From: Acidobacteriota bacterium
GTDB lineage: Bacteria > Acidobacteriota > Vicinamibacteria > Marinacidobacterales > Marinacidobacteraceae
Direction: 5' to 3'
NCBI GenBank assembly: GCA_022826825.1
Contig: JAJDUD010000008.1
Coordinates: 11,643-75,642 of the forward strand
DNA: 64,000 nt
The position numbers were made by a program, and so were the translations under genes. Position 1 is the first letter of the stretch; each line of letters starts with the position of its first letter. Below, one piece after another: positions 7,134 to 58,236 of this stretch. Under the pieces are notes generated by a model. It did no database searches. It was not told the DNA's origin and saw only the letters and a list, made by a program, of their open reading frames with translations.

Positions 7134-7146
7134 GTGCGGCGGGCGG

Positions 7147-9170: not shown

Positions 9171-9545
9171 GGAGCGCCAGTCTCCAGACTGGCATCGCGG
9201 CCGCAGGCCGCGAAACGCCCATGTCCGCGTCCTGCTGCACACCCCGCCGGGCATGAGAATGGCGGAAACGGCCTGGAACGCCGACCTCCGGTCGGCACAG
9301 CGGGCCGAAGGCCCGCGGGCGACGGGCCGCTATTCCCCTTGGGCGACAGAGATCCGGGAGCATCTCCTCGGCCCAGTTGCACCGCGAGAGAGGAGCATCC
9401 CGCAGGTCAGCGCCCCGCCGTGCGCTGCGCAGTCGCGCAGCGCGTGCCGACCAGAGGTCGGCGTTCCAAGCCGGCGGCGCCACCAGGGCGCGTTGGCCGA
9501 CGCGTCGGACCGCATTTTCACAACAACTGGTGAAGAGCGGCGCTC
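9171..9545. mobile_element. composite MITE-like palindromic repeat (inverted-repeat end plus B-module), a near-duplicate of 51990-52310
   Basis: Begins GGGAGCGCCAGTCTCCAGACTGGCATCGCGGCCGCAGGCCGCGAAAC straight after the TAG stop. The interior ...GCGGAAACGGCCTGGAACGCCGACCTCCGGTCGGCACAGCGGGCCGAAGGCCCGCGG...GCATTTTCACAACAACTGG aligns with 51990-52310. Confidence 0.6.
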
Positions 9546-17506: not shown

Positions 17507-17785
17507 GTAGAACGGCAGAAGCTGACACCGAGGGCTCTAGCTGGTGCCCGAAACGCCATCTCCCCAATTCTGGATCCGTCGGGCATACATGTGAGATCGA
17601 AAATGCACGGTCCGAGCGCTATCTTGCGCCGGCTGCTCACGAAGGCAGGTGTTCATTCTTGCAGCCTACAAGGGCACCCTTTAGGATAGCGGATCAAATG
17701 AGCGGGCAGGTGACGCGTGGACCGGGACACACTCCGGAGCCCGAACGCGGGTCAGGTGTGACCGTAGAACAGACAGCTATGCGGA

Positions 17786-18826
17786 GTGACGGCGGCTAGG
17801 ATGCACCCATTGGACGTCGTTCTCAGCGTCGTGTTTTGTGTCCTTTTCCTTGCCGCAATCGGGCTCAGTTTCCGAAGCGGGTCCCGAGTCACTGTTGGGA
17901 CGCTAGTGGGTGGAGGATTGGTAGTCGTCGCCGTTGTTGTCCTGCCTCTCGAGAGCTTGGAATGGAGTCCTGACGGTGGAATCAGAGTCCAGACGCGGGG
18001 GCCACGAATGCGGAATGTTGAAATCTCTGTGCACAGCGTGGCGGAGGGTATTGACACGGAGCAGCTCCACGTGTTTCTTGTACCAGTTCAACATAAAGCA
18101 GTCACCCAGACTAGAAGCGGTGACACGTTCTTCTCGTTCGAAAATGTGCCAGAGGGAGCGTACAACGTGCTTCTAGCGGACCGCGCAGGGCACTTTCTGT
18201 TGGAACCTCGTACAGTGGCAGGCGACCCTACATTGGATTCAATTGACCGGTTCCCGCGGGGAATCAACGTAAGCGGGGAAGTAAGAGAACTTACAGGGCG
18301 TCCCCTGGCAAATGTCGCAGTTGGTCTGGGAGACAACGTCGCGTGGACCAGGGCCGATGGATCCTCTGGTATCGAGGGAGCCCAATCCGGCGAACGTCAA
18401 CTGCGGATACTAGGTCGTGCACAATCACTAGAGCCGATCGAGCTGGGATCAGAAGATGTGGATGCCGGAGTTCTCTATTGGCCCGACCCCGTGCGAGACG
18501 CCCAGTTTTGCGAAGAGATTCAAGTGACTGAGGATTCGGAAGGCGAGAAGAGGTGGGTATTGGTTGACCCGTCACAGACGTTTTCCCCGGACGTTGAACG
18601 TGTGTACTTCTATACACGTGTAGTGGGTGCTACAGCACCAACACAGATAATACACCGGTGGATTCATGACGACACACCTGTTGACGTCCCTCTTGATATC
18701 GAGAGCAACGATTACCGTACAAATAGTTCTCGTCAAATCGATCGAAAGCAAGGCGAGTGGAAAGTACAGGTATTGTCGAAGTCCGGAGATATTCTCGCAA
18801 CCAGGGCTTTCTGGGTTGGAGAATAG
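17786..18826 (+). CDS. membrane-anchored protein with a DUF2914-like C-terminal domain, inside a lower-GC islet
   Basis: N-terminal TM helix followed by beta-rich domains. The tail (VERVYFYTRVVGA...IIHRWIHDDTPV...GEWKVQVLSKSGDILATRAFWV) resembles the DUF2914 signature. GC is markedly lower than the flanks. Confidence 0.4.
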   Translation: MTAARMHPLDVVLSVVFCVLFLAAIGLSFRSGSRVTVGTLVGGGLVVVAVVVLPLESLEWSPDGGIRVQTRGPRMRNVEISVHSVAEGIDTEQLHVFLVPVQHKAVTQTRSGDTFFSFENVPEGAYNVLLADRAGHFLLEPRTVAGDPTLDSIDRFPRGINVSGEVRELTGRPLANVAVGLGDNVAWTRADGSSGIEGAQSGERQLRILGRAQSLEPIELGSEDVDAGVLYWPDPVRDAQFCEEIQVTEDSEGEKRWVLVDPSQTFSPDVERVYFYTRVVGATAPTQIIHRWIHDDTPVDVPLDIESNDYRTNSSRQIDRKQGEWKVQVLSKSGDILATRAFWVGE

Positions 18827-18919
18827 GTCAATCTATAACACGCACTGCTTGCCCACTAACCTACGAGTAGGCGGACTCCGGCGAACCACAAATGGCACGA
18901 CTCTGACACGGTCGCGCCC

Positions 18920-19333
18920 TTGTTTCCCACGATGAAGAAGCTACCATCGTGGGTGTTACCTACTCTGGTTGTAGGAGTGCTCCTTGTTCTGTCCTCCCTC
19001 TTGCTGGTGCGCCTATGGAGTTCGGTGGTCCTTCGGGCTCCATTTTTCGGTCGTTTGGAACCCGCCACGCTCTCGGCCCTTTCCCTCCAAGTCGTCTTAC
19101 TGTCCGCGTTCATTACGCTGTCGAGCTTCATGGTTGCCATGATCGCGTTTCTTGGCTACCGCCAGATCAAGGAGGCTGCGGTGCAGAAAGCCGTCACCGC
19201 AGCAGTGGATAAGTGCCTGGAGCGAACCGACACTGCCGTAAGTGAACGTCTGAATGAGGTTCTTGGATCCAGGGTAGAAACCGGGCCCTCTCCAGAACCA
19301 GAACTAACCGAAGAGGTCTCCGAGGAGGTCTAG
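18920..19333 (+). CDS. small two-TM membrane protein with an acidic coiled-coil tail; true start may be MKKLPSW at 18932
   Basis: Two hydrophobic helices, then a KEAAVQKAV...EEVSEEV tail. The stop lies 2 nt before the ImmA-like gene start. Confidence 0.4.
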   Translation: MFPTMKKLPSWVLPTLVVGVLLVLSSLLLVRLWSSVVLRAPFFGRLEPATLSALSLQVVLLSAFITLSSFMVAMIAFLGYRQIKEAAVQKAVTAAVDKCLERTDTAVSERLNEVLGSRVETGPSPEPELTEEVSEEV

Positions 19334-19335
19334 GG

Positions 19336-19818
19336 ATGGACAAGGAAGAATTGCTGGAAGTCATCCGGTCCCACCAGAAGGAGGCTCCGGTACCCGTCTT
19401 TAACATTGCGCGAGCGATGGGACTGACGGTACTTCGTGCCCGTTGGCCCGACGAGTGGCAGGACAAGATTTCTGGGCAAATACAACGAATCCCTGAGACA
19501 GATCAATACCGGATTCTTCTGAACGCGGCGCATCCACTAACCCGGCAACGGTTTACCTTGGCCCACGAGATCGCCCACTTCGTTCATCACAAGCATCTGA
19601 TCGGAGATGGCATCACTCACGACGCCCTGTACCGAAGTCCACTGTCCACACCGCTGGAGCGAGAAGCAAACCGGCTCGCCGGGAACATTCTGATGCCTTG
19701 GAGCTTGCTTTGGCCCAAGATGTTTAGAGCAGAAACGGACGTGCGGGAGTTAGCGGCGGAGTTCAAGGTTTCTCCAGTAGCAATGGCCATCCAGACCGGG
19801 ATTCCCTACGAGCCGTGA
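19336..19818 (+). CDS. ImmA/IrrE-family (M78) zinc metallopeptidase
   Basis: HEIAHFVHH HEXXH motif in the ImmA/IrrE context, ...EREANRLAGNILMP..., about 160 aa. Confidence 0.65.
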   Translation: MDKEELLEVIRSHQKEAPVPVFNIARAMGLTVLRARWPDEWQDKISGQIQRIPETDQYRILLNAAHPLTRQRFTLAHEIAHFVHHKHLIGDGITHDALYRSPLSTPLEREANRLAGNILMPWSLLWPKMFRAETDVRELAAEFKVSPVAMAIQTGIPYEP

Positions 19819-20340
19819 CCGCCTGAAGCTAGCCGCGAACTGCCGATTTCGGCACAAAAGCAAATGCGAGACCAGAAGATGTCGGCCTAGAAGGCAGCCT
19901 GCCGGGTTGATGCGATAGGTAGCGAGATCCTCGAACGGAGTCCGCAATGATCCTCTGAAGTCTTGCCCCGACGTCATGCGTGAACTGGCCTGCGGCTACT
20001 TGCTTCGCGCTTTCCACGGTTTGCGGGCTGCCCCTAGTGCCGCATCTAGGACACTTGGCGGATCCGTCGCTGCAGCCGTCAGCAATAACCTGACACCTAG
20101 AGCAAATCAACACTAGTGCTATGCCATCAGCCATTGCGCTCCGCCACCAGAGTCGTCATCACCTACCACCATGGAGAGGATCCCAAGAGAACCCTTCTGA
20201 TTGCGCGTCTCTAGCACGCTGAACGGGAGAAGTCAAACGCGCGACTGTCTAGTCCAGGTGCAGGGCCTCCACAGCGAGGCCTGTATAACGCCAGCGGTAA
20301 ACACCGCACTACGCTTCTTCCGGAAGGCATCAGGATTCTG

Positions 20341-25688: not shown

Positions 25689-28600
25689 CGTTTCGCGCGC
25701 GCCACCAACGAACGATAGGTCCGGCTCAGGAAATCGTAAAGCACCAACTCGTGCGCTCGCGCCGACATGGGAAACAGCCGGTTCGCGTGCATGTGGGTCA
25801 GGGTTTGCAGCAGTTCTTCGAGTGGGCATTCGAGGTCACCAGACTCCGCCAAGTCCCGGAACTGTCGGACTACCTCCTTGGTGTCTTCGGACCGCTGCTG
25901 CAGGACGGCATCGAATCCGGCGAATCGGGAGTCATCGTCCGGGTATCCGGTAACCGCCGCTTGGATATCCCGGCGCTCCGCCCGCAGCCGTCTCGCTAGG
26001 CGCCGCCGTACACTGGGGCCCACTCCGAACTCCTGTCCGAACGACTCCCGCGCCCCGGCAACAACCTGGTTTCTTTCTCCGTAGTCCAGTCCGAAGTCTG
26101 CAAGCAACCGGTCAAAACCCATCGCCACTGCCTTCCACCGGAGGACTTCATCCTCCACCCCGTCGAGCACTCCGACGACCTGGAGCGCCGCCACACTGTC
26201 CGCCCGAAACCACGCTTCTGCCAGTTCGATCCCCCGCCCCCCGCCATAGCGTTCGACCTCGCGCACGTAGGTGTCGAGGCTCACGCGATGGACGGCACCG
26301 GTGGCCAAGAACGGCTGGAGGAGCGCCGACATCCGTTCTTCCAGCGCCCGACGAGCATCCGGCCCGCCTCGAAACCGGACGCGCAAATGGTGTTCCGGGT
26401 CTCCGTACCGGATGAAAAACCACGGCTCACCCGTCGCAGTGGCTCCGTGGAGCGCTGCCAGCGGCGCGACGACCTCGCGGAGCAGCCGATCCGCCGTGCC
26501 AGCGGCAGCGTAGAGCTTGTAGTAGAGCCACTCGTCTCCCGGGATGAAGGCCCGGGAAGCGATTGGTGCCGTCACGTTCCGCTGCTTTACGCCGTCTTCC
26601 CTGACCGAGGGCGCGGCCCGCTGCCTGCGCACGAGCGGAAGGATGAACTCGTTCCGGTAAGTCCCCTCGGGGCCGCTAACGCAGCCTTCCAGATCCTCAG
26701 CGAGCGTCTCCTCTAGAACCAGGGTGGGTCGGCGCGCCCCATGATCCGCCAGCACCGCCACGCACATCGGGTTGTCCAGATCCAGCAGCAGACGGTTCTC
26801 CCCATCGACGAGACGAACGAAACGCGGAAGCTTCAGCTCCCGAACCAGGGCCAACAGTGCGTCCTCACGGGCGGCGGGCTTCTTCGCCTTCGCAATGGCT
26901 TTGTACTCCGGACGATTGCGTCCCACCATCCAGCGGGCAAGCGCGTAAATGGCACGACCCCGGGTCACTCGCGGCAGGAACGGAAGTCCGTTCAGCACCC
27001 CCCAGTTCCAGCTGAACCCCGGCGCCGTCCCGTCGTTCTGGAGCGCGCATAGAAACCGATACATCCCGGAACTACGTCGATAGTTGTGGGCTGAGGTAAG
27101 GCGTGGGCGCACGATCCTGCCGTCCTGACGCGAGCGCAGCCGAAAACTGCTACCCTCCAGACTCAGCAGCAGATCGTCCACGGTCAGCCGCTTCGGACCG
27201 GTGAGCCGCGAGTTACCGCTACAACTCAACTCGATGTCGCGGACATGAGGTCGTCGCACGACATTGCCGACTCTACCCTCCGGTGTGTGCACGATTTCGG
27301 CATAGACCACCCCGGGTTCCAGCGCCTCCTCATCTCGAAGGTGGCCGCGCACCCGCTCGAGCAACACGGGGTCGAGATCGCAGAACCTTCCCAGCAACCG
27401 GCCACCCGACGGGCCGAAGCCGCCGTGATAGAGGATCCGATATGCGCCGCTCTGCACGGCCTCCTCAGAGGCAGCCACTAGATCAAAGTGGAGTGCCACG
27501 GCCGCTGGCAGAGGGCTCTGAACCGAGGTCGCGAGGCGTGTGAGCAGGTCATCGTCCAGTTCGAGACTCGCTGGGGCTTCACCCCGGAGGTCCAGGAGGC
27601 GCTCCATCAGCGCGTCCGGCACGCCCTGCTGAGGGCTTTTTCCGCGGTTGCCCTCTGCCCCGATGTTGAGGCCGGCAAGGAGCGGCGATCCTGACTGACG
27701 TGGTCGCAGATCCGGACCAGGCACACCGAGTCCCCGTTCCGGATCGAAAACCTCTGCTAGCGGAACCTCGCGTGTCTCGTACCGCTCCCGGAAGCGGCTC
27801 TTGAGGTCACGCAACGGATCCGGTAACCGCGTCATCAGGCGGTGTAACGTGTCGGCACCGCGAAGCACCTCGTCGACGACCTCCTCGGCGAGTTGCAACT
27901 CTTCGGTTTCCTTGAACATGTCCACCTGGAGGAGCCGCTCGGTTTTCTTCTGACCGAGAGGCCCGGTCCACACCGCGTTCACCGCCGCGTACGCCTCGGG
28001 TGGTGCCGCCACTCCATGCTCGTCGAGCTGGTCGAGCGCTTCGCGTAGCTGCCGGACCGGAGTGGCTGACTCGGACAGCGCCTCGCTCGCAGCGAGAGCC
28101 TGAAGGATCTGGTCCAGCGGATCGCTACCTACGACCGCAGGCACCAGCTCCGGCACGAGCACCTGCGACTCGATGAGGTCGTCAAGGTACTCGTCGATGT
28201 CGTCCGAGTTCACATCCGCATCAGTGATGGCGAGCGTCAACGCGGCATGTAATCCAGCCAGCGGCATCGCTTTCGCGGACCGCCGCTCCAAGGCGGCCGA
28301 AAGCGCTTCGTCATTCTCGAGAAACGCCATCTCGTGCCGGTTTTCGGGACCGCGCTGTCGCGCTTCCACATACTGGTACCCGCCCGCAATGGCCGCGATC
28401 GTGTCGTTGGGGCGGTAACGGAGATTCTTCCGGACTCCTTGTTGCCTCAGGAGGCTACCGACCAACTTGGCCACCTGCGCTTGGTCAAGTGCTGAGCGAC
28501 GCCGGTAACGGTCGCGCCCAGCAAGTCTCAGGCGCGTCAGTTCGCCTACGTTCCCCACGGATACACCGGCGAACAGGCCGAATGGCGTGCATCGGTCGCA

Positions 28601-28930
28601 CATCCGCGCGAAGTACTGGACGAGCGCTCGTTCCATCCGCGCCCGCCGCCGCGTAGGTGCTTGGTCGCCCAACCCGGACAGGCGCTCCGCGAGCACTGGA
28701 CTGGCGACCCGCAGCGCATCGGCCGCGTGCGGCAACGCCAGAGCCTCCACGAGAGTTCGCCGCAGCCGGTTCCTCGTGCCTGCTCCGTCACCCGCCGCAG
28801 GGGTTGCAGTTTGGCCACTGGCTCCCCAAACAGCAAAAGTGGCGGTGGGCAGTAAGGGCGTCCGTAGCACGAAAAACCCGGATGGCCGATAGCTGTCGGC
28901 GAAACCCGATGCCCCCGTCTCAGCTGTCAC
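25685..28930 (-). CDS. lanB: class I lanthipeptide dehydratase LanB (glutamylation plus elimination domains)
   Basis: 1081 aa. N-terminal SGFFVLRTPLLP is the canonical LanB opening. The C-terminal WFFIRYGDPEHHLRVRFRG matches the SpaB_C elimination domain. Confidence 0.85.
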   Translation of the reverse strand: MTAETGASGFADSYRPSGFFVLRTPLLPTATFAVWGASGQTATPAAGDGAGTRNRLRRTLVEALALPHAADALRVASPVLAERLSGLGDQAPTRRRARMERALVQYFARMCDRCTPFGLFAGVSVGNVGELTRLRLAGRDRYRRRSALDQAQVAKLVGSLLRQQGVRKNLRYRPNDTIAAIAGGYQYVEARQRGPENRHEMAFLENDEALSAALERRSAKAMPLAGLHAALTLAITDADVNSDDIDEYLDDLIESQVLVPELVPAVVGSDPLDQILQALAASEALSESATPVRQLREALDQLDEHGVAAPPEAYAAVNAVWTGPLGQKKTERLLQVDMFKETEELQLAEEVVDEVLRGADTLHRLMTRLPDPLRDLKSRFRERYETREVPLAEVFDPERGLGVPGPDLRPRQSGSPLLAGLNIGAEGNRGKSPQQGVPDALMERLLDLRGEAPASLELDDDLLTRLATSVQSPLPAAVALHFDLVAASEEAVQSGAYRILYHGGFGPSGGRLLGRFCDLDPVLLERVRGHLRDEEALEPGVVYAEIVHTPEGRVGNVVRRPHVRDIELSCSGNSRLTGPKRLTVDDLLLSLEGSSFRLRSRQDGRIVRPRLTSAHNYRRSSGMYRFLCALQNDGTAPGFSWNWGVLNGLPFLPRVTRGRAIYALARWMVGRNRPEYKAIAKAKKPAAREDALLALVRELKLPRFVRLVDGENRLLLDLDNPMCVAVLADHGARRPTLVLEETLAEDLEGCVSGPEGTYRNEFILPLVRRQRAAPSVREDGVKQRNVTAPIASRAFIPGDEWLYYKLYAAAGTADRLLREVVAPLAALHGATATGEPWFFIRYGDPEHHLRVRFRGGPDARRALEERMSALLQPFLATGAVHRVSLDTYVREVERYGGGRGIELAEAWFRADSVAALQVVGVLDGVEDEVLRWKAVAMGFDRLLADFGLDYGERNQVVAGARESFGQEFGVGPSVRRRLARRLRAERRDIQAAVTGYPDDDSRFAGFDAVLQQRSEDTKEVVRQFRDLAESGDLECPLEELLQTLTHMHANRLFPMSARAHELVLYDFLSRTYRSLVARAKR

Positions 28931-28963
28931 CTTGGCCGCGGTTTCACAAACTCGGAACTAGAC

Positions 28964-30214
28964 TCAGGATAAGAGCAACAGGCGGTCCCACTTCGGCTCG
29001 ATGTCCGTCGTCCCGGTCAGTAGTGCTAGCCCAACGCCCGCCGAGCCAGTGAGAAACGACCCATCATCTACCCAGCCTTGGCGATTCCCGCCTACATCAC
29101 CCCACATGCGGTAACCACCCACTCCCTGGTTTGGTCGCCACCAGTTCAGGGTCGCATCAACCCAACCCCTTGCCGCGTTTGCGAACTCCGGTTCATTGTC
29201 AGTGCGTGCAAGTCGATAGAAGATCTGGGCGTTTCCCGCCGCCCCATGGCAGAGTCCGGCGTCTCGAATCCAGGCCTCGCCGGGTCGGACGCGAGCGCAG
29301 GCAAGAGCCAAGGTCCGCGCCCACTCCACGCCCTCCTGATCCCCAATTGCTTTCGCCGCCTCGAATGCCACCGCTGACGCACCAAGTGGGCCGTAGCACC
29401 ATGCCATTCGGCGACTGACCTCGGGTTCAACGCCCGGCGCAATCCATGATGGCAACGACGCTTCGGTTGGGTCTGACTTGATTGCCCTGAGCCATCGCAA
29501 ACTATCCCGAAGCAAGGGCTCGGCTCGATCCGGCTCGACCCCGAAGGAACATAGCTTCCCCAGAAGCCCACACACCCCTGGCACGCCGTGTGCTACACCC
29601 AAGTTGTAGTAGCCAGCGGGTGCCAGTTTGCGCTGCCAAGCGGGCAGAAAGTCCGCCACCGTGAACCATGTCGTCCCTTCCTTAGTCTCGACCGCCATGC
29701 GCTCAAGCGCCTCAAGAACCAAGCCAAGGCCGCGGACTGCGGAGTCGCGAGGTAGTCGTTCTACGAAATAGACGCCGACACCAACCACGCCGCTGATCAG
29801 GTCGTAGACCCGCTGGTCCGACTGCCGTGCCAAGGCTTCTGCCGCTAACCGGTCCACATGGGTTCCCACGGCATCATCCTCAGCGTCCAAATGAGTCGTA
29901 AGCCAGCCTGGACCCGCCCAGCCACCGTACAGACCCAACTGGGTGGACCTTTGGATTCGATCAAGGTCCGCATCAATCAGCGTTGAGCATGCGTTGGAGT
30001 CATCTTGAAACACCTCCGCCATGTCGGCGTAGGCATGGAAGAGAGCGGCAAGCCCACCGGGGCGACGACGGAATCCGAAGGGTACATTGGATTCTGGTTC
30101 GACCGGTCGCCGCGCCATATTGACAAGCGCTTCCCCTATACCTTTCACAATCAACCTTGCGTTTGCTTTCGATCCAGTGGGCGAGAACGTCTCGCCGGTA
30201 GGCCGTTGGGTCAT
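28964..30214 (-). CDS. lanC: lanthionine cyclase LanC
   Basis: 416 aa carrying the three LanC zinc-ligand motifs GVAHGVPG, WCYGPLG and GLCHGAAGN. Confidence 0.85.
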   Translation of the reverse strand: MTQRPTGETFSPTGSKANARLIVKGIGEALVNMARRPVEPESNVPFGFRRRPGGLAALFHAYADMAEVFQDDSNACSTLIDADLDRIQRSTQLGLYGGWAGPGWLTTHLDAEDDAVGTHVDRLAAEALARQSDQRVYDLISGVVGVGVYFVERLPRDSAVRGLGLVLEALERMAVETKEGTTWFTVADFLPAWQRKLAPAGYYNLGVAHGVPGVCGLLGKLCSFGVEPDRAEPLLRDSLRWLRAIKSDPTEASLPSWIAPGVEPEVSRRMAWCYGPLGASAVAFEAAKAIGDQEGVEWARTLALACARVRPGEAWIRDAGLCHGAAGNAQIFYRLARTDNEPEFANAARGWVDATLNWWRPNQGVGGYRMWGDVGGNRQGWVDDGSFLTGSAGVGLALLTGTTDIEPKWDRLLLLS

Positions 30215-30689
30215 GTTCTTTGACGGCTGTATTGTTCCCGTTAACCTGAAGGACCGGTTTGACTGGCCGCGCTCTCCGGCCGATCAGGCTCAGTCACACG
30301 GCACATCGAATACAAGGTTCAGCTACGCACACCAAGAGAGTCACGAGCGCAGGGTCGGCGACCGCTGCCGGGCCAGCTACGAGCGTAGAACAAACGTAAT
30401 CCCAGCGGTTTATCGGTGTCCGGAGCAAGAGTAGCGATTCAGCGAAGAACACGCACGGTCACTCCGGTTACCGGCGTACGTGTCACCTTAAGGGCGCGCA
30501 CAAGTTCATTCGCGCCTACTACCCGTAGGTAAGTGTGAGCGCACGTGGTGCTTTGCCCGTATCGCTTGTCTCCTCGTAGCCTGCCCGTGGCCTGTTGCTC
30601 TCGGATTCACCTCGTTGACCAGAACTGGATAGTCAAGCGAGCGCCGACAAGACATCAACGCGCTAAACAGCTCTGCCAGGAACCCCCGG

Positions 30690-31028
30690 TCAGCAACCTT
30701 GGTTGTTTTCCGAGTCGCAAAGACCACAGCCAGTGCCACACGAGTAACCGCATGTTGCATCGCATGTGGCATTGCACGACGCTTGACCACAGTTCGTGTC
30801 GCAGGTGGCGGTAGGGCAATCACAAGTACCCTGGCACGCCGAGACGTTGTCACAAGTATCCCCCACGACGGTCTGGGGCTCGACCCTACAGTCACCGATG
30901 CCATAGGTACATCGATCAGTATTTCGTGGTTGAGTTGGGAGGGGGTCATCGCCACCAGCGACACCGGCTAGCCGATCTTGGCTGAGCGATACGAGATTAC
31001 GTTTCTTCAGACGTAGTTTCTTCTTCAT
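30690..31028 (-). CDS. lanA: lanthipeptide precursor LanA: double-glycine leader plus an 86-aa Cys/Thr/Ser-rich core
   Basis: Internal ATG gives MKKKLRLKKRNLVSLSQDRLAGVAGG followed by DDPLPTQPRNTDRCTYGIGDCRV...CGTGCGLCDSENNQGC. The leader fits LSxx(E)LxxVxGG. The core has 15 Cys and 16 Ser/Thr, with recurring TCD/ATC units. Local GC is lower than the genome background. Confidence 0.7.
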   Translation of the reverse strand: MKKKLRLKKRNLVSLSQDRLAGVAGGDDPLPTQPRNTDRCTYGIGDCRVEPQTVVGDTCDNVSACQGTCDCPTATCDTNCGQASCNATCDATCGYSCGTGCGLCDSENNQGC

Positions 31029-31068
31029 GGTGCTGCACCTCAGGCAGCGTGGATGGTCGATTGGAGTG

Positions 31069-31113
31069 TCCCGGAAGGTGGGATCCGAGATGGACCACAC
31101 CTTCCGGGAAGGT
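31069..31113 (-). promoter_or_regulatory. inverted repeat (11-bp arms, 19-nt spacer) plus an overlapping direct copy, in the 100-bp gap upstream of lanA
   Basis: CCCGGAAGGTG...CACCTTCCGGGAAGGTG sits between the TonB-receptor stop (31132) and the lanA start (31028), with no T-run after it on the transcribed strand. Candidate operator or 5'-UTR structure. Confidence 0.35.
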
Positions 31114-31131
31114 GAACTAACAGCCCCGCGA

Positions 31132-36178: not shown

Positions 36179-36319
36179 GGGAGGCGGCCTGGCGGTCCCC
36201 GGAACGGTGAGCGGTAGCGGCGGCAACGGGTTTCCTATACTAGGCGAGGTACGGCTCGCCGGGCTCCCCGCCGGATGACCGGATCGGATGACGCGCCGGC
36301 CCGCCGGGAGGCGAACGAC

Positions 36320-37045
36320 ATGGATCGCAGACTCTTTCTGAAGGCCGCGGCCACGGTGAGCGGCGCCGGTATCGTGGGCGTGAACGACCGCGCCGAAGCG
36401 CTCGAGCACGAGATGATGCACCTGCTCGAGGCCCCCGAGCGTCCGCCGCTCGCGAAGTCCGAGGACGAGGAACCGCTCTCGGTCATGCCGGCGAAGCCGA
36501 CGCTCCTCGATTTCTTCGAGCACCGCTTCGCGCCGGCCTCCCACGTGCTGCAGAGCGCCACCCGGGCGATGAAGCACGGCATGAGCGAGGAGATCATCCT
36601 CGCCTGCCTGCTCCACGACCTCTCGGTGATGAACCTGGTGCGCGCCGACCACGGCTGGTGGGGCGCCCAGATGCTCGCGCCGTACGTGCCCGAGAAGGTC
36701 TCGTGGGCCATCCGCTACCACCAGGCGCTGCGCTTCTTCCCCGACCCGTCCGTCGGCTACGAGTACCCCGAGATGTACGTGCGGATGTTCGGCGCCGACC
36801 ACGAGCCGGAGCCCTACATCAAGGCCGCCTACGAGTACGCCCGGAACCACAAGTGGTACATGGAAGCGCGGTCCATCACCATGCACGACGACTACAGCTT
36901 CGAGCGAGGTGCCGAGGTCTCGATCGATCCGTTCGTGGACATCATCGGCCGGCACTTCAAGCAGCCGAAGGAGGGGCTCGGCTACGACAACAGCCCCACG
37001 GCGCACATGTGGCGGACGATGATCAACCCGCGGCGGAGGTTGTAG
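36320..37045 (+). CDS. Tat-signal HD-domain phosphohydrolase-like protein
   Basis: MDRRLFLKAAATVSGAGIVG twin-arginine signal. HD motif (LLHDLS) with additional His residues. Confidence 0.55.
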   Translation: MDRRLFLKAAATVSGAGIVGVNDRAEALEHEMMHLLEAPERPPLAKSEDEEPLSVMPAKPTLLDFFEHRFAPASHVLQSATRAMKHGMSEEIILACLLHDLSVMNLVRADHGWWGAQMLAPYVPEKVSWAIRYHQALRFFPDPSVGYEYPEMYVRMFGADHEPEPYIKAAYEYARNHKWYMEARSITMHDDYSFERGAEVSIDPFVDIIGRHFKQPKEGLGYDNSPTAHMWRTMINPRRRL

Positions 37046-37064
37046 GGGGAGCTCAAGGAGCGCA

Positions 37065-37284
37065 GGGAGCGCCGGTCTTCAGACCGGCATCGCCCGCACA
37101 GCGGGCGAAACTCCTGGGCTTCACTTCGCCGCATGGCGCCCCCGTCAAGGCGAGTGGCGCGACGACAACTGCGCGCGCCTACTTCGCTTTCGCCATCTTC
37201 GTTTCGAGTCCCCGCAATGTGGCGCGATGGCGCCGGGAGTTTCGCGGCCTACGGCCGCGATGCCAGTCTGAAGACTGGCGCTCC
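37065..37284. mobile_element. MITE-like palindromic element (about 220 bp) with two-hairpin terminal inverted repeats
   Basis: Left end GGAGCGCCGGTCTTCAGACCGGCATCGCCCGCACAGCGGGCGAAACTCC. Right end GTTTCGCGGCCTACGGCCGCGATGCCAGTCTGAAGACTGGCGCTCC. The ends are reverse complements and each holds two stem-loops. Inserted about 20 nt after a TAG stop. Confidence 0.65.
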
Positions 37285-38660: not shown

Positions 38661-38734
38661 TGTCGGGTCGCTCCGTCCGCCTGGGATGAACTACCGATCG
38701 AGCGTCGCCACGACCACTGAATGGACGACGGGAG

Positions 38735-38830
38735 TCTGCCGTGAAAATGCAGCCTCGGCGGTCCGCCGACCGGTGTGATGGCTCACCGGCTGGACTGCAT
38801 TTTCAGAGCAACTGGCCGGCGTTCCTAGCG
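38735..38830. repeat. short palindromic element related to the terminal motif of the composite repeat
   Basis: GTGAAAATGCAG...CTGCATTTTCAGAGCAACTGG: inverted 12-mers flank a GC hairpin. CTGCATTTTCACA(R)CAACTGG also ends the copies at 9.5 and 52.3 kb. Confidence 0.4.
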
Positions 38831-49961: not shown

Positions 49962-51728
49962 ATGGCTGACACTCGTTCCTCCTCCTCTTTCGCGCCGCCG
50001 CCGGGACCGGAGCGGCTCGCCTGGAACCGGCGCCGGTTCATGGCCGGGCTCTCCGGGCTGGGGCTCGGCTCCACCCTGCTTCCCGGAGCGCTCACCGCCT
50101 GCGCGGGAGATGCGGACACCGTGTCGGTCGGGATGCTGCGCACCGCCCAGCAACTCGCCGGGCTGGAGTTCTCCGACGACGAACTCTCGTTGGTGGCCGA
50201 GCGGCTGAACGGAGAGCGCAGCCCGCTGGACGCCTACCAGGGCATCCGGGATCCGGAGATCCACAACCACCAGCCGCCGTCGTTCGTGTTCCATCCGCTC
50301 CCCCCGGGCAAGCCGATGCCGGAAACGGCCGGCGGAATGCAGCCGTCCCGGCCGGAGGTGTCCCGTCCCGAGTCCGATACCGACCTCGCCTTCCTTCCGG
50401 TCACCCACCTTGCCCGGCTCGTGGAGACCCGCCAGGTCACCTCCACGGAACTCACGGAGCTCTACCTCGCACGGCTCAAGGAGTTCGACCCGGTCCTGCT
50501 CTGCGTGGTCAACCTGACCGAGGATCTCGCCCGGGAGCAGGCGGCGCGCGCCGACGAGGAGATTGCCGCCGGCAACTACCGCGGGCCGCTCCACGGAATC
50601 CCGTGGGGCGCGAAAGACCTGCTCGCGGTCAAGGGGACGAAGACCACCTGGGGCGCCACTCCGTACCGGGAACAGGCGATCGAGGAGGACGCCACCGTCT
50701 ATACGAAGCTCACGGAAGCAGGCGCCGTGCTCGTCGCCAAGCTGACGATGGGCGCGCTGGCGTCGGGAGACCGCTGGTTCGGCGGCCGGACCCGGAATCC
50801 CTGGAACACCGAACAGGGATCGAGCGGCTCCTCCGCCGGACCGGGATCGGCGACCGCCGCCGGCCTGGTGGGGTTCTCCATCGGCACCGAGACGCGCGGT
50901 TCCATCATCTCGCCCTCGACCCGGAACGGCATCACGGGGCACCGGCCGACCTTCGGCCGGGTGAGCCGGGCGGGCGCCATGGCGCTCTCCTGGACCATGG
51001 ACAAGATCGGGCCCATGTGCCGGAGCGCCGAGGACTGCGCGCTGGTGTTCGAGGCCATCCGCGGCGCCGACGATCTGGACCGCGCGGTCCAGGACCCGCC
51101 CTTCGCGTGGGACGCGTCCGCGGATCCCACGGCGCTCCGGGTGGGGTACGACCGGGCGGCGGTCGAGGACGAGATCGAGGACGATCCGGAAGATCCGGAT
51201 CAGGTGGCGGCCCGCCGCACGGCGCAGGAGAACACGCGGGCGGCGATCGAAGTCCTGCGCGGGGCGGGAATCACCATTACCCCGTTCGACCTCCCCGAAC
51301 TCGACTGGAACGACCTCTCCTTCGTACTGTCCGCCGAGTCCGCCGCCGCCCACGACGCGCTGGCCCGGAGCGGCGCCGACCTCGCCATGAAGGAACCCCC
51401 GGAGGAGAGCCGCTGGCCGGATACGTTCCGCACGTACCGGTTCGTCCCCGCGGTGGAGTACATCCAGGCGATGCGGGTGCGGACCCGGATCATGCGCGAG
51501 TTCGACGCAGCGTTCGGAGACCTGGACCTCTTCATCGGGTCGAACCTGGGCCTTACCAACCTGACCGGACATCCCGAGGTCTGCATGCCGAACGGTTACC
51601 ACGAGGGGTCGCCGACGAGCCTGCGCATGACCGGGAAGCTCTACGGAGACACGGAGATCCTGACGCTCGCGCACGCGTATCAGCAACTGACCGACTTCCA
51701 CCTCAGGAAGCCGCCGGTAGGTGGGTAG
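49962..51728 (+). CDS. Tat-exported amidase-signature (AS) family amidase
   Basis: Twin-arginine signal NRRRFMAGLSGLGLGS. The AS region GGSSGGSAAAV is present as GSSGSSAGPGSAT, and the catalytic Ser-cisSer-Lys context (KDLLAVKG) is present. Confidence 0.75.
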   Translation: MADTRSSSSFAPPPGPERLAWNRRRFMAGLSGLGLGSTLLPGALTACAGDADTVSVGMLRTAQQLAGLEFSDDELSLVAERLNGERSPLDAYQGIRDPEIHNHQPPSFVFHPLPPGKPMPETAGGMQPSRPEVSRPESDTDLAFLPVTHLARLVETRQVTSTELTELYLARLKEFDPVLLCVVNLTEDLAREQAARADEEIAAGNYRGPLHGIPWGAKDLLAVKGTKTTWGATPYREQAIEEDATVYTKLTEAGAVLVAKLTMGALASGDRWFGGRTRNPWNTEQGSSGSSAGPGSATAAGLVGFSIGTETRGSIISPSTRNGITGHRPTFGRVSRAGAMALSWTMDKIGPMCRSAEDCALVFEAIRGADDLDRAVQDPPFAWDASADPTALRVGYDRAAVEDEIEDDPEDPDQVAARRTAQENTRAAIEVLRGAGITITPFDLPELDWNDLSFVLSAESAAAHDALARSGADLAMKEPPEESRWPDTFRTYRFVPAVEYIQAMRVRTRIMREFDAAFGDLDLFIGSNLGLTNLTGHPEVCMPNGYHEGSPTSLRMTGKLYGDTEILTLAHAYQQLTDFHLRKPPVGG

Positions 51729-51746
51729 CAGCGCCAGGGAGCGCGA

Positions 51747-52310
51747 GGAGCGCCGGTGTTCACACCGGCATCGCCCCGCGCCGCGGGGCGAAACTCCCGC
51801 CGCCATTCCTCCGCAGGTCGCGGCGCGCGACTGGGACGGCGCAGCGCCGTCGGGCAACATCCAACGACGTTTCGCCGTCCACGATGGAGCCCACGTGATG
51901 CGGAAGCAGAGCCGGGGGAGTTTCGTGGCCTGCGGCCACGATGCCGCACCCCCACCGGGATAAACACCCATGCGCGCGTCCTCCTACGCACCCCGCTTGT
52001 CATGAAAACAGCGGAAACGGCTGGGAACGCCGACCTCCGGTCGGCACAGCGGGCCGAAGGCCCGCGGACGACGTGCCGCTAATCGTCTCGGGCGACAGAG
52101 GTCCGGGAGCGTCCCCTTCGCCCGGTTGCACCGAGAGAGAACCATCCCGCAGGTCGGCGCCCCGCCGTGCGCTGCGCGGTCGCGCAGCGCGTGCCGACCA
52201 GAGGTCGGCGTTCCAAGCCGGCGGCGCCATCACGGCGGTTCACCGACCCGCCGGACTGCATTTTCACAGCAACTGGGCCTCGCCGCTCTCGGCGCTCACG
52301 TCACTTTCTC
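51747..52310. mobile_element. compound repeat: a right-truncated MITE copy followed by a B-module copy, the latter nearly identical to 9230-9545
   Basis: Starts GGAGCGCCGGTGTTCACACCGGCATCGCCCCGCGCCGCGGGGCGAAACTCCC about 20 nt after the amidase TAG. The second half GCGGAAACGGCTGGGAACGCCGACCTCCGGTCGGCACAGCGGGCCGAAGGCCCGCGG...CTGCATTTTCACAGCAACTGG matches the copy at 9.2-9.5 kb. Confidence 0.6.
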
Positions 52311-54569: not shown

Positions 54570-54790
54570 CGGCAGCCACCGTGGCGCGCCGGCTTGGAAC
54601 GCCGGCCTCCGGCCGGCACGCGCTGGCCGCAAGGCCAGTGCACGGCGCTCGTTGCTTACCCTCACGGGCCCTCCGAATCCATAGGGAGCGCCGGTTCGGC
54701 CTGGCTCACGCGCACCGGAAGAACGGGCCCGGCCTCCGCCGGTTTGAGGGGCCGAAACGCGCCCGGAACGTGCTACCGTCCGCCGCTCGT
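54570..54790. repeat. degenerate copy of the palindromic repeat family, reverse orientation
   Basis: GCGCCGGCTTGGAACGCCGGCCTCCGGCCGGCAC is the reverse-complement counterpart of GTCGGCGTTCCAAGCCGGCGGCGCC. Also contains GGGAGCGCCGGTTCGGCC. Confidence 0.3.
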
Positions 54791-56799
54791 TGAGCGACTC
54801 CACCGCGTCCCGCCGCCCGTTCGACGAGGTCGATGCGCAGGCGATCGCCGCCATCCGGGGGCTCGGCATCGACGCGGTCGAGAAGGCGAATTCCGGCCAT
54901 CCGGGCCTGCCCATGGGAGCGGCTCCCATGGCCTGGGTGCTCTGGAGCCGCCATCTCAGGACGTGCCCGAGCGATCCCGACTGGCCGGACCGGGACCGCT
55001 TCGTCCTCTCGGCGGGCCACGGCTCGATGCTGCTCTACGCCCTGCTGCATCTCGCGGGCTATCCGGTGAGCCTCGACGACATCCGGGACTTCCGGCAGTG
55101 GGAAAGCCGCACCCCGGGGCATCCGGAGACGTTCGCGACCCCGGGAGTCGAGGCGACCACCGGGCCGCTCGGGCAGGGGGCGGGGAACTCGGTGGGCATG
55201 GCCATTGCCGAGCGGGCGCTCCGCGCGCGGTTCCCGGGGCTCGTGAACCACCGGGTGTTCGCGCTGGTTTCCGATGGCGACCTGATGGAGGGGGTGGCGT
55301 GCGAAGCGGCTTCGCTCGCCGGGCAACTCGGGCTCGGGCGGCTGGTGTGGCTCTACGACCAGAACGACGTCACCCTCGACGGACCGGCCTCGCTCTCCTT
55401 CTCGGTGGAGGACGTGGCGGCCCGCCACCGCGCGCTCGGCTGGCACGTGCAGACCGTTGCCGACGGCAACCACGATCTGGACGGGATCGACGCGGCGATC
55501 GCGGCCGCGGTGGCCGAGAGCGAGCGGCCGTCGCTCGTCGTGGTGAACACGACCATCGGCTACGGCGCCCCCAACAAGGCCGGGACTTCGGCCGCCCACG
55601 GGGCTCCGCTGGGTGTGGGCGAGGCGGCCGCCGCCAAGGCGGCGCTGGGGCTCGACCCGGAGACGGCCTTCGCCGTTCCGGAGGGGGTCCGCGAGCGCTG
55701 CGCGGATCGGGCCGGACAGGGAAGGGCCGCGCGGAACGCGTGGTACGGGAGGCTGGCTCACGCTCGGGCGGAGGCGCCGCAACGGGCCGCCGAACTGGAG
55801 CGTCGCCTCCAGAAGGGGCTGCCGGACGGCTGGGATGAAGGGCTTCCGGCCTTCGGTCCCGAGGACCGGCTCGCCACCCGGGACGCGTCCGGGAAGACCA
55901 TGAACGCCCTGGCGGCGCGGGTCCCGGAGTTCTTCGGCGGCGACGCGGACCTTTCGTGTTCCACGAAGACGGCGCTCGCGGGCCTCGGCTCCCAGTCCGC
56001 CGCCGACGCCGGCGGCCGCAACCTCCACTACGGCGTCCGCGAGCACGCGATGGGCGCCGCGGCGAACGGAATCGCCTATCACGGCGGGTTCCGCACCTTC
56101 GCCTCCACGTTCTTCTGCTTCGCCGACTACATGCGGCCCTCGGTGCGGCTGGCGGCGCTCTCGGGGCTGCCGGTGGTCTACGTCTGGACGCACGACTCGG
56201 TGGGGGTGGGCGAAGACGGCCCGACGCATCAGCCCGTCGAGCACCTCATGTCGCTCCGCGCCATGCCGAACCTCCACGTGGTCCGTCCTGCCGACGCGAA
56301 CGAGACGGTGGAGGCGTGGCGCCACGCGCTGCGCCGCACCGTGGGGCCGACCGCGCTGGTCCTGACCCGGCAGAAGGTGCCGACCCTGACCACCCCGGAA
56401 CGGGCCTCGGGCCTGCAGCGCGGCGGCTACGTGCTCCGGAACCCGGCGTCGGCGCTCCGGGCGGTGGTGATCGCCACCGGCTCCGAGGTGTCGCTCGCGG
56501 TCGCCGCCGCGGAGCGGCTCGATGCCGAGGGTCTCGGGGTCCGGGTGGTGTCCCTGCCGTGCTGGGAGCTGTTCGAGGCGCAGAGTCCGGCGTATCGGGA
56601 GAGCGTGCTGCCGGCCGGGATCCCGCGCGTCGCGGTGGAGGCCGGCGCAACGCTCGGCTGGGAGCGCTACGTGGGGCGCGGCCCGGTCGTCGGCGTGGAC
56701 CGCTTCGGCGCCTCCGCCCCCGGCGCCGAGGTCGCGGCGCGGCTCGGCCTCACCGAAGACGCGGTCGCCGCCGCCGCCCGGTCCGCGGTCGGCAGCTAG
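54790..56799 (+). CDS. tkt: transketolase
   Basis: 669 aa. N-terminal ThDP motif ...[14 protein letters not shown]..., a GDG-x-MEG ThDP-binding stretch ([14 protein letters not shown]) and a transketolase C-terminal domain. Confidence 0.85.
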
Positions 56800-56806
56800 C
56801 GGCAGC

Positions 56807-57420
56807 GGAGCGCCGGTCTCCGACCGGCATCGCCCGCGCAGCGGGCGAAACTCCCGGGCTTCCCTTCGCCGCATGGCGCCCTCGCCCAAGGGAACGGCGC
56901 AGCGACAACTGCGCGCGCGTACATCGCGACAGGACCGAAGTTTCGCGGCCTGCGGCCGCGATGCCGGTCGGAGACCGGCGCTCCACTGCTGCGCGCGCTT
57001 GGTGCGGGGCGGCGTTGTGGTGGTGGGGGGAGTGTGACAAGCGTGAATGGCGGCGTGCGGGTATCGCGGCCCGCGGGGGCCACGAAACCGCGTTCCGACA
57101 ATCCGCCCGAAGTGCGCACGGCAGTGGAGCGCCGGTCTCCGACCGGCATCGCCCGCGCAGCGGGCGAAACTCCCGGGCTTCCTTTTGCCGCATGGCGCCC
57201 TCGCCCAAGGGAACGGCGCAGCGACAACTGCGCGCGCGTACGTCACTTCGTCGTCTTCGTTTCGGGTATCCGCGACGGGGCCGGAGTTTCGCGGCCAGCG
57301 GCCGCGCTGTCGGTCGGAGACCGGCCCACCCCGACCGCGCGCGCTTGGCGCGGGGGAGTGTGGTGGTGGTGGGCGGGGGGTGACGAGCGTGAATGGCGGC
57401 GGGAGGGTGTCCGCCAACTC
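56807..57420. mobile_element. tandem duplication (two units of ~318 bp) of the MITE plus about 140 bp of flank
   Basis: Unit 1 runs 56807-57124 (intact TIRs GGAGCGCCGGTCTCCGACCGGCATCGC...GCGATGCCGGTCGGAGACCGGCGCTCC). Unit 2 runs 57125-57420 (degenerate right TIR). Both are followed by TGCGCGCGCTTGG(T/C)GCGGGG...GTGGTGGTGGG...GTGA(C)AAGCGTGAATGGCGGCG. Starts 8 nt after the tkt TAG. Confidence 0.65.
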
Positions 57421-57432
57421 GACCAGGCAGCC

Positions 57433-58236
57433 TCAGCCCTCCCACACCAGGAAGTGGCTTTGCCAGCGGGATAGCGGGCTCTCCCCCGTCGCCTGGAAGT
57501 GGTTCCACGCCTCGATCGCGGTCATCGGCGTCTCCAGACTCCGGGGATTCCGGAACGTGTAGGTGGGGCCGCCACGCTCTTCCTCGCGGGCGTAGGTCCG
57601 GACGTCGCGCCGCAGGTCCGGGCGCTCCATGTCGAAGGGAACCAGGTCCGTCGTGGCCCCCACCCCGTCGTGCCGGAACCCGGGGGCCGCGCGCAGCAGT
57701 CCGGCCACCCGTTCCTCGCCGTACTGCGCCGAGACGCTCAGCAGCAGCACGCCGCCCGGTTTCAGGTAATCCCGGGCGCCCCGGACGACCACCCGCCGCA
57801 TCTCGAAGCCGTCTCCCACCGGGCTCGACGAGGGAGGGTTCGCAATCATGAAGTCGGTCGTGTCCCGGAACGCCGCGAGCACTCGCCGGCCTTCCGCCGA
57901 GGCCGGTTGGTAGGCGTCCGATTCGACGAACCGGACCCTGTCGTCCACCTGGTTGGCGCGGGCGTTCTCCCGGGCCGCCGCCACGCCGCGGGGGTCGAGT
58001 TCCAGCCCGAGCACCTCCTCCACCCCGGCGAGCCGGGCGGCGGCGATGGCGAGCAGCCCGGAACCGCTGCCCCAGTCGAGCCCGCGTCCCCGAAAGCGGC
58101 CGGTGTCGGCCGCGATCGCCTTCAGGGCGATCCGGCTGGCGGGCGTGGGAACGAAAGCGCCCTCCGGATGGTGGATCCGGAGGGGCTCCGCGCCGAGGGC
58201 GGAAGGGACGGGGATTTCGCTGTGCTCCGGCGCCAT
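57433..58236 (-). CDS. class I SAM-dependent methyltransferase (small MTS/HemK-like)
   Basis: SAM-binding LDWGSGSGLLAIA (motif I) and a substrate-binding IANPP motif. Confidence 0.6.
   Translation of the reverse strand: MAPEHSEIPVPSALGAEPLRIHHPEGAFVPTPASRIALKAIAADTGRFRGRGLDWGSGSGLLAIAAARLAGVEEVLGLELDPRGVAAARENARANQVDDRVRFVESDAYQPASAEGRRVLAAFRDTTDFMIANPPSSSPVGDGFEMRRVVVRGARDYLKPGGVLLLSVSAQYGEERVAGLLRAAPGFRHDGVGATTDLVPFDMERPDLRRDVRTYAREEERGGPTYTFRNPRSLETPMTAIEAWNHFQATGESPLSRWQSHFLVWEG

Follow-up and report, generated by a model that had tools for sequence, protein, structure and literature searches.

A tandem REPIN cluster behind a transketolase gene in marine Acidobacteriota and its probable place in a REP-RAYT system

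In the 64-kb stretch of Acidobacteriota DNA analysed here (the window), the 633-nt spacer between a transketolase gene (tkt) and a convergent methyltransferase gene is occupied by two units of a palindromic repeat in direct orientation. The locus raises the question of what kind of element this repeat is, when it was duplicated, and why copies of its family lie so close to stop codons. The initial annotation had read it as a miniature inverted-repeat transposable element (MITE), freshly duplicated together with part of its flank and inserted preferentially just after TAG stops. We consider it highly probable that the region is a cluster of the repetitive extragenic palindromic (REP) type and forms part of a REP/REPIN-RAYT system found in marine and sponge-associated Acidobacteriota (Vicinamibacteria and related lineages). 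Once recognised as a tandem REPIN cluster, the locus itself is ordinary.

The units and their two-hairpin arms

The tkt gene (54790-56799, plus strand) was taken from the list of open reading frames (ORFs), and its homologues carry Pfam transketolase domains. Its TAG stop (56797-56799) keeps its position in orthologues. The cluster is bounded by the methyltransferase gene (57433-58236, minus strand; TGA stop 57433-35; Pfam MTS/PrmA domains), which is the orthologous neighbour of tkt in the related loci L092, L094 and L097 as well. Two head-to-tail units downstream of tkt, as originally described, were recovered by a repeat search and by gapped alignment. The search paired 56800-56925 with 57119-57244 (97% identity, 319 nt from start to start) and 56925-57065 with 57271-57411 (83% identity, 346 nt from start to start). 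Because a shared CGGCAG(C/T) tail precedes each octamer, the units truly start at 56800 and 57119, 6-7 nt to the left of the limits first assigned to them (56807 and 57125). The array at the tkt locus was not reported by Tandem Repeats Finder because it is too diverged and gapped.

Both units follow one plan. The 7-nt tail CGGCAG(C/T) leads into a left arm, which an interior separates from an inverted right arm, and another ~75-90 nt come after that. The basic arm is ~50 nt long and consists of a 5′ tail (GGAGCGCC or GGAACGCC), a hairpin of 6-7 bp, a conserved single-stranded spacer (GGCATCG or GGCAC), a second hairpin and often CGAAAC. In the A-type arms of the window the order is GGAGCGCC, hairpin 1 (GCCGGTC-TCC-GACCGGC), ATCG, hairpin 2 and GAAAC(TCC), with hairpin 2 reading GCCCGC-GCA-GCGGGC on left arms and GCGGCC-GCA-GGCCGC on right arms. 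B-type arms share this architecture (GGAACGCC, hairpin, GGCAC, hairpin). Two inverted arms flanking an interior of 80-110 nt make up a REPIN, which forms a long hairpin in single-stranded DNA or RNA. The two arms of one element can differ, as in the copy near 37 kb (CCGGTC...GACCGG on one arm, CCAGTC...GACTGG on the other), so that the local hairpins are kept and the long-range pairing is weakened.

Both hairpins are conserved as structures. Across 28 variants of hairpin 1 and 49 variants of hairpin 2 the mean stem lengths were 4.7 and 4.2 bp, respectively, against 0.7 in shuffles. The commonest geometry is represented by 43 distinct arms; each of its 11 stem pairs was paired in 95-100% of them, and six of the 11 covaried among GC, CG, AT and TA. 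Compensatory changes preserve both stems across many marine and sponge Acidobacteriota genomes, and the unpaired motifs (octamer, GGCATCG and CGAAAC) are invariant. From sequence comparison, this combination of constant unpaired motifs and covarying stems suggests that what is recognised is a single strand in folded form together with particular unpaired bases. Stem covariation argues against a double-stranded transposase binding site, which would not need such pairing.

Arms beside RayT genes and the identity of the element

An arm-core scan that used one genome per species found at least 83 loci. About 62 of the listed loci came from ~12 metagenome-assembled genomes (MAGs) of Acidobacteriota, namely Vicinamibacteria, Candidatus Marinacidobacterium and sponge-derived bins, and the sample taken from related Acidobacteriota comprised 172 arms in ~0.53 Mb of DNA. 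Roughly 20 arm-core matches outside Acidobacteriota were excluded as not being arms, since they had neither the octamer nor hairpin 1; several of them, from different phyla, have the same surrounding sequence and look like a conserved coding motif. The arm core was absent from viral contigs. The commonest arrangement is the plus-minus inverted pair, with its arms 150-320 nt apart; other arms stand alone or form direct tandem arrays (six copies of 142 nt in L036; also L017 and L037).

A HUH/Y1 motif search of all fetched DNA returned a single gene (L064 193-924), which matches Pfam Y1_Tnp (PF01797). Together with two homologues it scores 92-97 bits on the NCBIfam RAYT equivalog NF047646, for which the cut-off is 80. 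This RayT gene has one B-type arm upstream and five inverted copies downstream. Five further RayT loci of related genomes were found as homologues (L088, L089/90, L084-87, L098/99 and L100/101), and all six loci, which are independent, are flanked by inverted arm arrays whose arms point inward on both sides. The arms themselves vary between loci: the L089/L090 gene has 6-9 arms upstream and 10-11 downstream that read GGAGCGCC, then GGTCTTCAGACC or GGTGTTCACACC, then GGCACC; the L088 gene has A-type arms of the full GGCATCG...CGAAAC form upstream; and the L084-87 gene has three arms upstream and five downstream of a short single-hairpin form (GGTCCGCC-GGCCTCCAGGCC-GGCA). Inverted arrays lie on both sides of the remaining two genes, with GGAACGCC-GGTCTCCGACC-GGCAC in L098/99 and GGAGCGCC-GGTCTCCGACC-GGCAC in L100/101. 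Over their first 23 nt the arms of L100/101 match the window arm at 56807 exactly, and L098 comes from the same MAG (JAJEIY01) as L016 and L081, of which L081 is syntenic with the window at ~86% nucleotide identity.

Because a RayT gene flanked by the same arms is the defining REP-RAYT arrangement, we regard the presumed MITE as a REPIN. RayT, a single-copy HUH/Y1 tyrosine transposase, would recognise the hairpins in single-stranded DNA, mobilise the arms and spread the doublets. The analogy is with the studied RAYT and IS200/IS605 enzymes, a mechanism that leaves no target-site duplication. Copies would survive where they are harmless, mainly after gene 3′ ends and especially between convergent genes. 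Indirect signs of RayT mobilisation are the differing elements at one site across lineages and the genome-specific variants of hairpin 1.

Several points weigh against this identification. The 64-kb window contains no RayT gene, so the link rests on related genomes and metagenome contigs. The RAYT-flanking arms mostly carry GGCAC after hairpin 1 and not GGCATCG...CGAAAC, and the exact A-type arm stands beside RayT only in L088, clearly only upstream. The GTAG/CGTC tag of classical REPs is absent, the 5′ tail being GGAGC or GGAAC (GGTCC or GGTGC in L084); this tag is the mark of the two superfamilies in PMC3733652 and does not define association with a RAYT. No transposition or excision event was observed, and differences in presence and absence could equally reflect recombination. 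Finally, loci were chosen by arm pattern and gene ends came from a custom caller, both of which could bias the position statistics given further below.

A classical MITE would be a deletion derivative of an insertion sequence (IS) with a DDE transposase, mobilised through its terminal inverted repeats (TIRs) at targets of the TA or CTAG type, which would bring it onto stop codons, and, here, duplicated in tandem very recently. The inverted termini of ~48 nt around a short interior in the present repeat fit this description, as do the composite near 9 kb, bracketed by TAG...TAG, and a copy in L010 with TA on both sides; the junction TA|GGAGCGCC is also over-represented (9 of 172 arms against 1.7 expected, six of the nine being CTAG). 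However, the flanks of ~130 arms show no consistent direct repeat and thus no target-site duplication, and the proposed duplications of TAG, TA or CTAG fit isolated copies only, such as the two just named. The 2-7 nt outside the octamer are instead inverted and subfamily-specific (CTC, CTT, CCA, GCA and others). The arms also occur singly and in direct tandem arrays, their stems covary, the genes that they flank are RayT genes, the tandem pair predates the split from the sister strain, and the ~0.6 Mb of related DNA fetched as individual loci contained no IS that has such ends. We therefore hold a classical MITE to be very improbable: what stands of that label is a small, non-autonomous, inverted-repeat mobile element, and what falls is the TIR and target-site-duplication type.

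Three candidate segments were rejected. The 175-nt 'filled site' of L069 (1491-1667), whose counterpart in the window is empty, reflects faulty assembly, with homopolymers and Ns. As possible autonomous elements, L054 has 1.8 kb between arms without a transposase-like ORF, and the 3.4-kb segment of L032 holds housekeeping genes. The inverted arms of L054 (1433-3260) bracket two small ORFs that, by their sequence, resemble an antitoxin/PIN-toxin pair.

A different reading is a structured noncoding RNA gene or a CRISPR-like array in which the conserved hairpin ending in GAAAC would be a processed RNA repeat. Apart from regular direct arrays (L036, L089), it has in its favour that hairpin 2 with GAAAC looks faintly like a CRISPR repeat (sub-threshold Rfam matches to CRISPR-DR28, 18.7 bits against a threshold of 35, and CRISPR-DR29, 19.1 against 39). 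Against it, Rfam gave no match in the whole window at the gathering threshold and only chance-level matches (E ≥0.3) under permissive settings, the 'spacers' of the arrays are near-identical and not unique, the doublets are palindromic and occur in both orientations, and the arrays flank RayT genes, not cas genes. Covariation fits single-stranded DNA equally well, and we give this reading next to no credence.

Among known systems, the REPIN cluster proposed here has a close likeness in the REPINs of Pseudomonas fluorescens SBW25 (Bertels & Rainey 2011, PMC3116915). There, too, inverted palindromic doublets form a long hairpin, are extragenic and are accompanied by singlets that look like decaying doublets; the commonest higher-order structure is a tandem repeat of the REPIN including its flanking sequences, in ordered clusters; and REPIN clusters adjoin each single-copy RAYT gene. 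The host in that case is a member of the Gammaproteobacteria, the REP is ~20-25 nt long and carries a GTAG tag, whereas the arm described here is ~50 nt long with two hairpins and conserved single-stranded spacers. Arrays beside RayT in Acidobacteriota reach 6-11 copies per side, unlike the SBW25 clusters. The GTAG/CGTC REPs, described together with the TIRtrons and TIRYTs, lie mostly between convergent or unidirectional ORFs, where a GTAG terminus often contributes the TAG with which the neighbouring ORF ends (Di Nocera et al. 2013, PMC3733652). Both features recur here, but the tag is GGAGCGCC or GGAACGCC, and TAG arises from a T before (A)GGAGCGCC and not from the tag. A distinct Acidobacteria transposase group has been described in the same work (PMC3733652); the transposases found here pass the NCBIfam RAYT equivalog cut-off.

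The REP/BIME elements of Escherichia coli with TnpA-REP likewise form mosaic clusters of alternating palindromic units with linker motifs at gene 3′ ends, and other repeats insert into their palindromes, much as a B-type module sits in the hairpin-1 loop of an A arm at 9531. They differ in sequence, size and the absence of the two-hairpin layout, and gyrase, IHF and Pol I binding is on the E. coli side. Classical MITEs (Correia; IS630/Tc1-derived) resemble the family in being small, non-autonomous and present in many intergenic copies with terminal inverted repeats. They differ in that here no target-site duplication and, in the fetched loci, no DDE partner were seen, the arms are independent (alone or in arrays), and stem covariation points to recognition of single-stranded hairpins. 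To our knowledge, REPIN-RAYT systems have been studied almost only in Proteobacteria. The family would extend them to uncultured marine and sponge-associated Acidobacteriota, a phylum with hardly any described, and its unusually long two-hairpin arm yields very clean covariation that outlines what RayT probably reads and so offers biochemists a substrate to start from.

The regular direct arrays contain 5-11 arms at periods of 80, 85, 120 or 142 nt (L089 2429-2900 and 3770-4570, L090, L036 1067-1830, L064 1030-1570), and the longest ones flank RayT genes. For annotation, such clusters matter in two ways. They break assemblies, as in L096, where the contig ends 52 nt after the tkt stop, and in the homopolymers and Ns of L069 1491-1667; and they create spurious ORFs, for example a 234-amino-acid call across the L091 array and the calls at L089 3615-4481 and L100 3175-4386. 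In L098 (2064-3400) and L100 (2079-3624), RayT and its arm arrays lie between guanylate kinase and coaBC in opposite orientation, as expected if recombination between inverted arrays flips the segment.

The two units in comparison and the age of the array

Unit 1 (56800-57118, plus strand), delimited by direct repeats and alignments, consists of tail, REPIN, linker module, decayed arm and spacer. Its left arm (56807-56854, plus strand; 47.1 bits, with fold and covariation in agreement) begins with the octamer GGAGCGCC at 56807-14, continues with hairpin 1 at 56812-28 and GGCATCG, and ends with hairpin 2 at 56831-47 (triloop GCA) followed by CGAAACTCC. The interior (56855-56937) has a 28-nt deletion relative to unit 2, the copy near 37 kb and all units of the sister locus L091; the long interior is found in a copy in L051 as well, so the loss belongs to unit 1. 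The right arm (56938-56984, minus strand; 53.6 bits) is intact and has a hairpin 2 of the right-arm type. For the whole REPIN of this unit (56800-56992) a fold of -84.6 kcal/mol is predicted (z = -9.6). The linker module (ACTGCTGCGCGCGCTTGG...GAATGGCGGCGTGCGG; 56985-57058, plus strand) follows, and after it a decayed reverse arm (57061-57096, minus strand), recognised by comparison with L016 945-995 and by a minus-strand octamer match at 57096. The decayed arm has kept hairpin 2 and lost hairpin 1, and its end reads GCGTTCC.

Unit 2 (57119 to ~57415, plus strand), found by repeat search and alignments, comprises the tail CGGCAGT, a REPIN with a full-length interior and a copy of the linker, and it is cut off shortly before the methyltransferase stop. 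Its left arm (57126-57173, plus strand; 47.9 bits) is intact. The right arm (57283-57325, minus strand) is degenerate, as had been noticed from the start: it scores 31.8 bits against 53.6 in unit 1 and has two mismatches in the pattern search, and although both hairpins are retained, GGCGCTCC has become GGCCCACC at the terminus and GGCATCG in the spacer has become GACAGCG. The linker copy (57326-57411, plus strand) is a direct repeat of the first, with 84% identity over 75 nt.

This linker is what had been taken for ~140 bp of adjacent flank. It is indeed duplicated, but it is not unique, as it is present in every L091 unit and recurs at L016 872-973, in another genome and at a non-orthologous locus upstream of a glycine-cleavage T gene, where it again has the end of an arm on one side and the inner side of a further arm on the other. 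On sequence grounds, the duplicated flank is a repeat module and not unique adjacent sequence.

The same intergenic site was compared across orthologous tkt loci. In L091 (tkt amino acid identity 98%) the stop is followed by three tandem units with all arms intact and a long interior. L092 (94%) and L094 (93%) have one unrelated single arm each, 13 nt after TAA and 47 nt after TAG, respectively; L097 (89%) has one reverse arm ~100 nt after TAG; and L096 (90%) is the locus whose contig ends there. With the window units called W1 and W2 and those of L091 La, Lb and Lc, identities were 93% for W1-La, 90% for W2-Lc, 95% for Lb-Lc and 89% for W1-W2. Between the window and L091, identity at the four-fold degenerate sites of tkt is 93.6%. 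Because the identity of W1 and W2 is below this neutral between-genome value, the array predates the split of the two genomes; it is older than the divergence from the sister strain, and its copy number has changed since (two here, three in L091). A fresh duplication, as first supposed, is thus contradicted both by the three units of the sister genome and by the divergence of W1 and W2.

The two window units are mosaic. Their left 123 nt are 97.6% identical and their right parts 82.8% (p = 8e-5), and the left halves are closer to each other than W2 is to any L091 unit (94-95%). The left halves were probably homogenised later by gene conversion, and the right half of unit 2 appears to be decaying; recombination and conversion would together have produced the present array. 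In outline, a REPIN with its linker module and decayed arm would have been amplified head to tail by unequal recombination or slippage between repeats, the common route to ordered REPIN clusters, before the split from the sister strain, followed by the change in copy number, the 28-nt loss from unit 1, the decay of the right arm of unit 2 and the probable conversion of the left halves.

At the junction of gene and array, L091 (4508-4530) has a 12-nt duplication after the tkt stop, TAG CGGCAGCAG TAG CGGCAGC GGAGCGCC, which places another TAG in frame. There is microhomology at this junction, since the tail CGGCAGC is similar to the final codons of tkt (GGC AGC).

Gene ends, TAG stops and the other copies in the window

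Positions relative to genes were determined with a codon-usage gene caller trained on these data, to which one missed gene (36275-37045) was added by hand. Intergenic regions with arms were convergent in 32 cases, tandem in 27 and divergent in seven, compared with 31, 178 and 41 regions without arms at the same loci. Convergent regions were thus strongly enriched among occupied ones (32 of 66 against 31 of 250 empty regions; odds ratio (OR) 6.6, p = 1.5e-9). Of the 116 outermost arms, 34 face a start and 82 a stop, which is at most 30 nt away for 33 of these 82 (40%) and at most 7 nt away for 14. No arm comes closer than 16 nt to a start. The outer end of the arm points toward the stop in a ratio of 68:17, which is expected from inverted pairs and was not counted as evidence.

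In the window, the initial annotation had placed four copies 0-25 nt after TAG stops, and all four placements held. From stop to arm octamer there are 0 nt at the M20 peptidase gene (stop 9168-9170), 20 nt at the 'HD protein' gene (37043-37045; 11 nt to an extra octamer iteration), 18 nt at the amidase gene (51726-51728; 9 nt to an octamer iteration) and 7 nt at tkt. Pfam upheld three of the gene names (M20 peptidase, amidase, transketolase), and the 'HD protein' had no Pfam match. Two further cases overlap minus-strand TAG stops (9546-9548 and 38825-27). TAG ends ~43% of the window genes, and four of four is weak by itself (about 0.03).

A survey of stop-to-copy distances in related loci, of the kind that had been proposed as a check, revealed a positional bias toward TAG. 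TAG ends 28 of 46 genes with an octamer within 30 nt and 94 of 333 others (OR 4.0, p = 3e-5; stratified by genome, Cochran-Mantel-Haenszel z = 3.9). The raw enrichment is partly an operon effect, as genes within 15 nt of the next gene use TGA in 60 of 69 cases (87%). The bias persisted against uncoupled genes (62% versus 36%, OR 3.0, p = 0.0025), within convergent pairs (67% versus 39%, p = 0.02) and after orthologous gene ends had been collapsed (25/42, 60%, versus 72/232, 31%; OR 3.3, p = 7e-4). Because the bias is significant in this wider sample, the pattern of the four window copies reflects a real property of the family.

Proximity to TAG is therefore family-wide, but part of it is geometric in that the stop may be provided by, or shared with, the end of the repeat. 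As a rule the tail reads (A)GGAGCGCC, and TAG is the sole stop able to overlap or abut it; of the eight gene ends at a distance of 0 or less from the octamer, seven are TAG. The association is now seen in a second, unrelated REP family, and stop sharing by repeat ends may be a general REP feature and not a peculiarity of GTAG. At the tkt site nothing indicates specific targeting of the stop by the element. Lineages that carry different elements 7, 13, 47 and ~100 nt downstream have kept the position of this stop, which is mostly TAG; therefore, the stop is older than the present element and was not created by it. Distances alone are no proof of targeting because short convergent spacers (median 57 nt when empty) put any tolerated insertion near a stop.

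The same pattern could also arise from function and not from insertion tolerance, if the element were a selected RNA element at gene 3′ ends whose long GC-rich hairpin works on the transcript (as a bidirectional terminator, a block to 3′ exonucleases or a brake on terminating ribosomes), which would be compatible with an origin through RayT. E. coli REPs stabilise upstream mRNA and reduce translation when they lie within ~15 nt of a stop. In the present family, the strong enrichment between convergent genes and the asymmetry between stops and starts favour such a role, as do four convergent gaps filled end to end by an element and the re-occupation of the same intergenic sites by different elements across lineages. 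Elements also lie nearer one stop than uniform placement predicts (mean minimum fraction 0.15 versus 0.25, n = 19), a comparison that is confounded by other spacer modules. On the other hand, a search for intrinsic terminators (GC-rich stem-loop plus T-tract) found no site in 56600-57600, and the genome has canonical terminators between convergent genes, for example at 7100-7135 (GGGGCGGCCGCG-CTTC-GCGGCCGCCCC, then TGTTTT). A terminator needs neither conserved single-stranded motifs nor flanking of RayT, purifying selection against insertion near promoters predicts the same pattern, and the decaying arms (unit 2; 57061-57096) argue against strong constraint on each copy. We regard selection for a 3′-end function as possible but rather unlikely; by analogy, the array may act at the RNA level as a 3′ stabiliser, a roadblock or through an effect on terminating ribosomes.

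A more specific version holds that, throughout these symbiont Acidobacteriota, the two-hairpin modules are the standard 3′-end signal of convergent genes, with a Shine-Dalgarno-like tail (A)GGAGCGCC at or over the TAG. The tail would be placed by RayT-mediated insertion at (C)TAG or by selection, and a hairpin melted by the terminating ribosome would have both RF1 termination and what becomes of the 3′ end of the mRNA coupled to it. We think this improbable; if true, it would explain the TAG bias together with the repeated re-occupation of sites by lineage-specific variants.

Apart from the tkt array, repeat and arm searches placed further members in the window, so that the REPIN family occupies at least eight intergenic sites. 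The composite at 9171-9546 spans the entire gap between two TAG stops. It consists of an A-type arm (9171-9216), B-type REPIN arms from 9275 (plus) and 9467 (minus), a module ending in ...CAACTGG at 9530 and a truncated A arm (9531-9546) whose octamer overlaps the minus-strand stop at 9546-9548 and whose intact counterpart is found in L081. Within 9524-9548, a B-family or 'C' module ending in ...GCATTTTCACAACAACTGG is joined to the A-type arm in the hairpin 1 loop; the junction at 9531 reads GGAGCGCC-GCTC-TTCA|CCAGTTG..., and the orthologous L081 site (7472-7530) is an intact arm. Related junctions (…AACTGG|GCC-hairpin) occur in L006, L008, L061, L064 and L067, and it seems that one repeat family inserts into, or recombines at, the hairpin loop of another.

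The first arm of this composite can be compared with L069 3747-3791, which lies at the same site after the same M20-peptidase stop. Hairpin 2 and the spacers are identical. In hairpin 1, one loop base and two base pairs differ, both pairs with full compensation, and each version of this hairpin is the variant dominant in its own genome. The pattern suggests that the arms were replaced or converted by lineage-specific master copies and did not simply drift apart.

Repeat and arm-score searches identified a full-length REPIN between convergent genes at 37057-37284, with an extra octamer iteration (37057-64) and arms at 37066-37114 (plus) and 37236-37284 (minus), and a composite after the amidase TAG (51738-52290), with an octamer iteration at 51738, an A-type arm at 51747, a variant right arm (51917-51969) and a B-type REPIN (52024-52214) with flanking modules. 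Arms often carry two or three iterations of the terminal octamer, (GGAGCGCN)n, at their outer end (window 37057-37073 and 51738-51754; L036 1040-1075; L015, L033 and L053), and these iterations occupy the space between stop and arm. B-type doublets adjoin A copies at 9.2-9.5 kb and 52.0-52.3 kb, and the B type is also present at 1.04, 38.7 and 54.6 kb. The first of these is an arm (1036-1083) between genes at 991 and 1144; the second an inverted pair of the ...GCATTTTCAGAGCAACTGG module (38700-38827), whose GGAACGCC end overlaps the minus-strand TAG stop (38825-27) of a RidA-like gene; and the third a single arm (54596-54650) 40 nt after the TAG of a beta-eliminating lyase gene.

No tRNAs were found in the 64-kb window. 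Two stretches of low G+C content (~17500-20340 and 28470-31130; 0.55 at 18-20 kb and 0.59 at 30-32 kb, compared with ~0.70 elsewhere) received no confident genes from the codon-usage caller and may be foreign or non-coding DNA.

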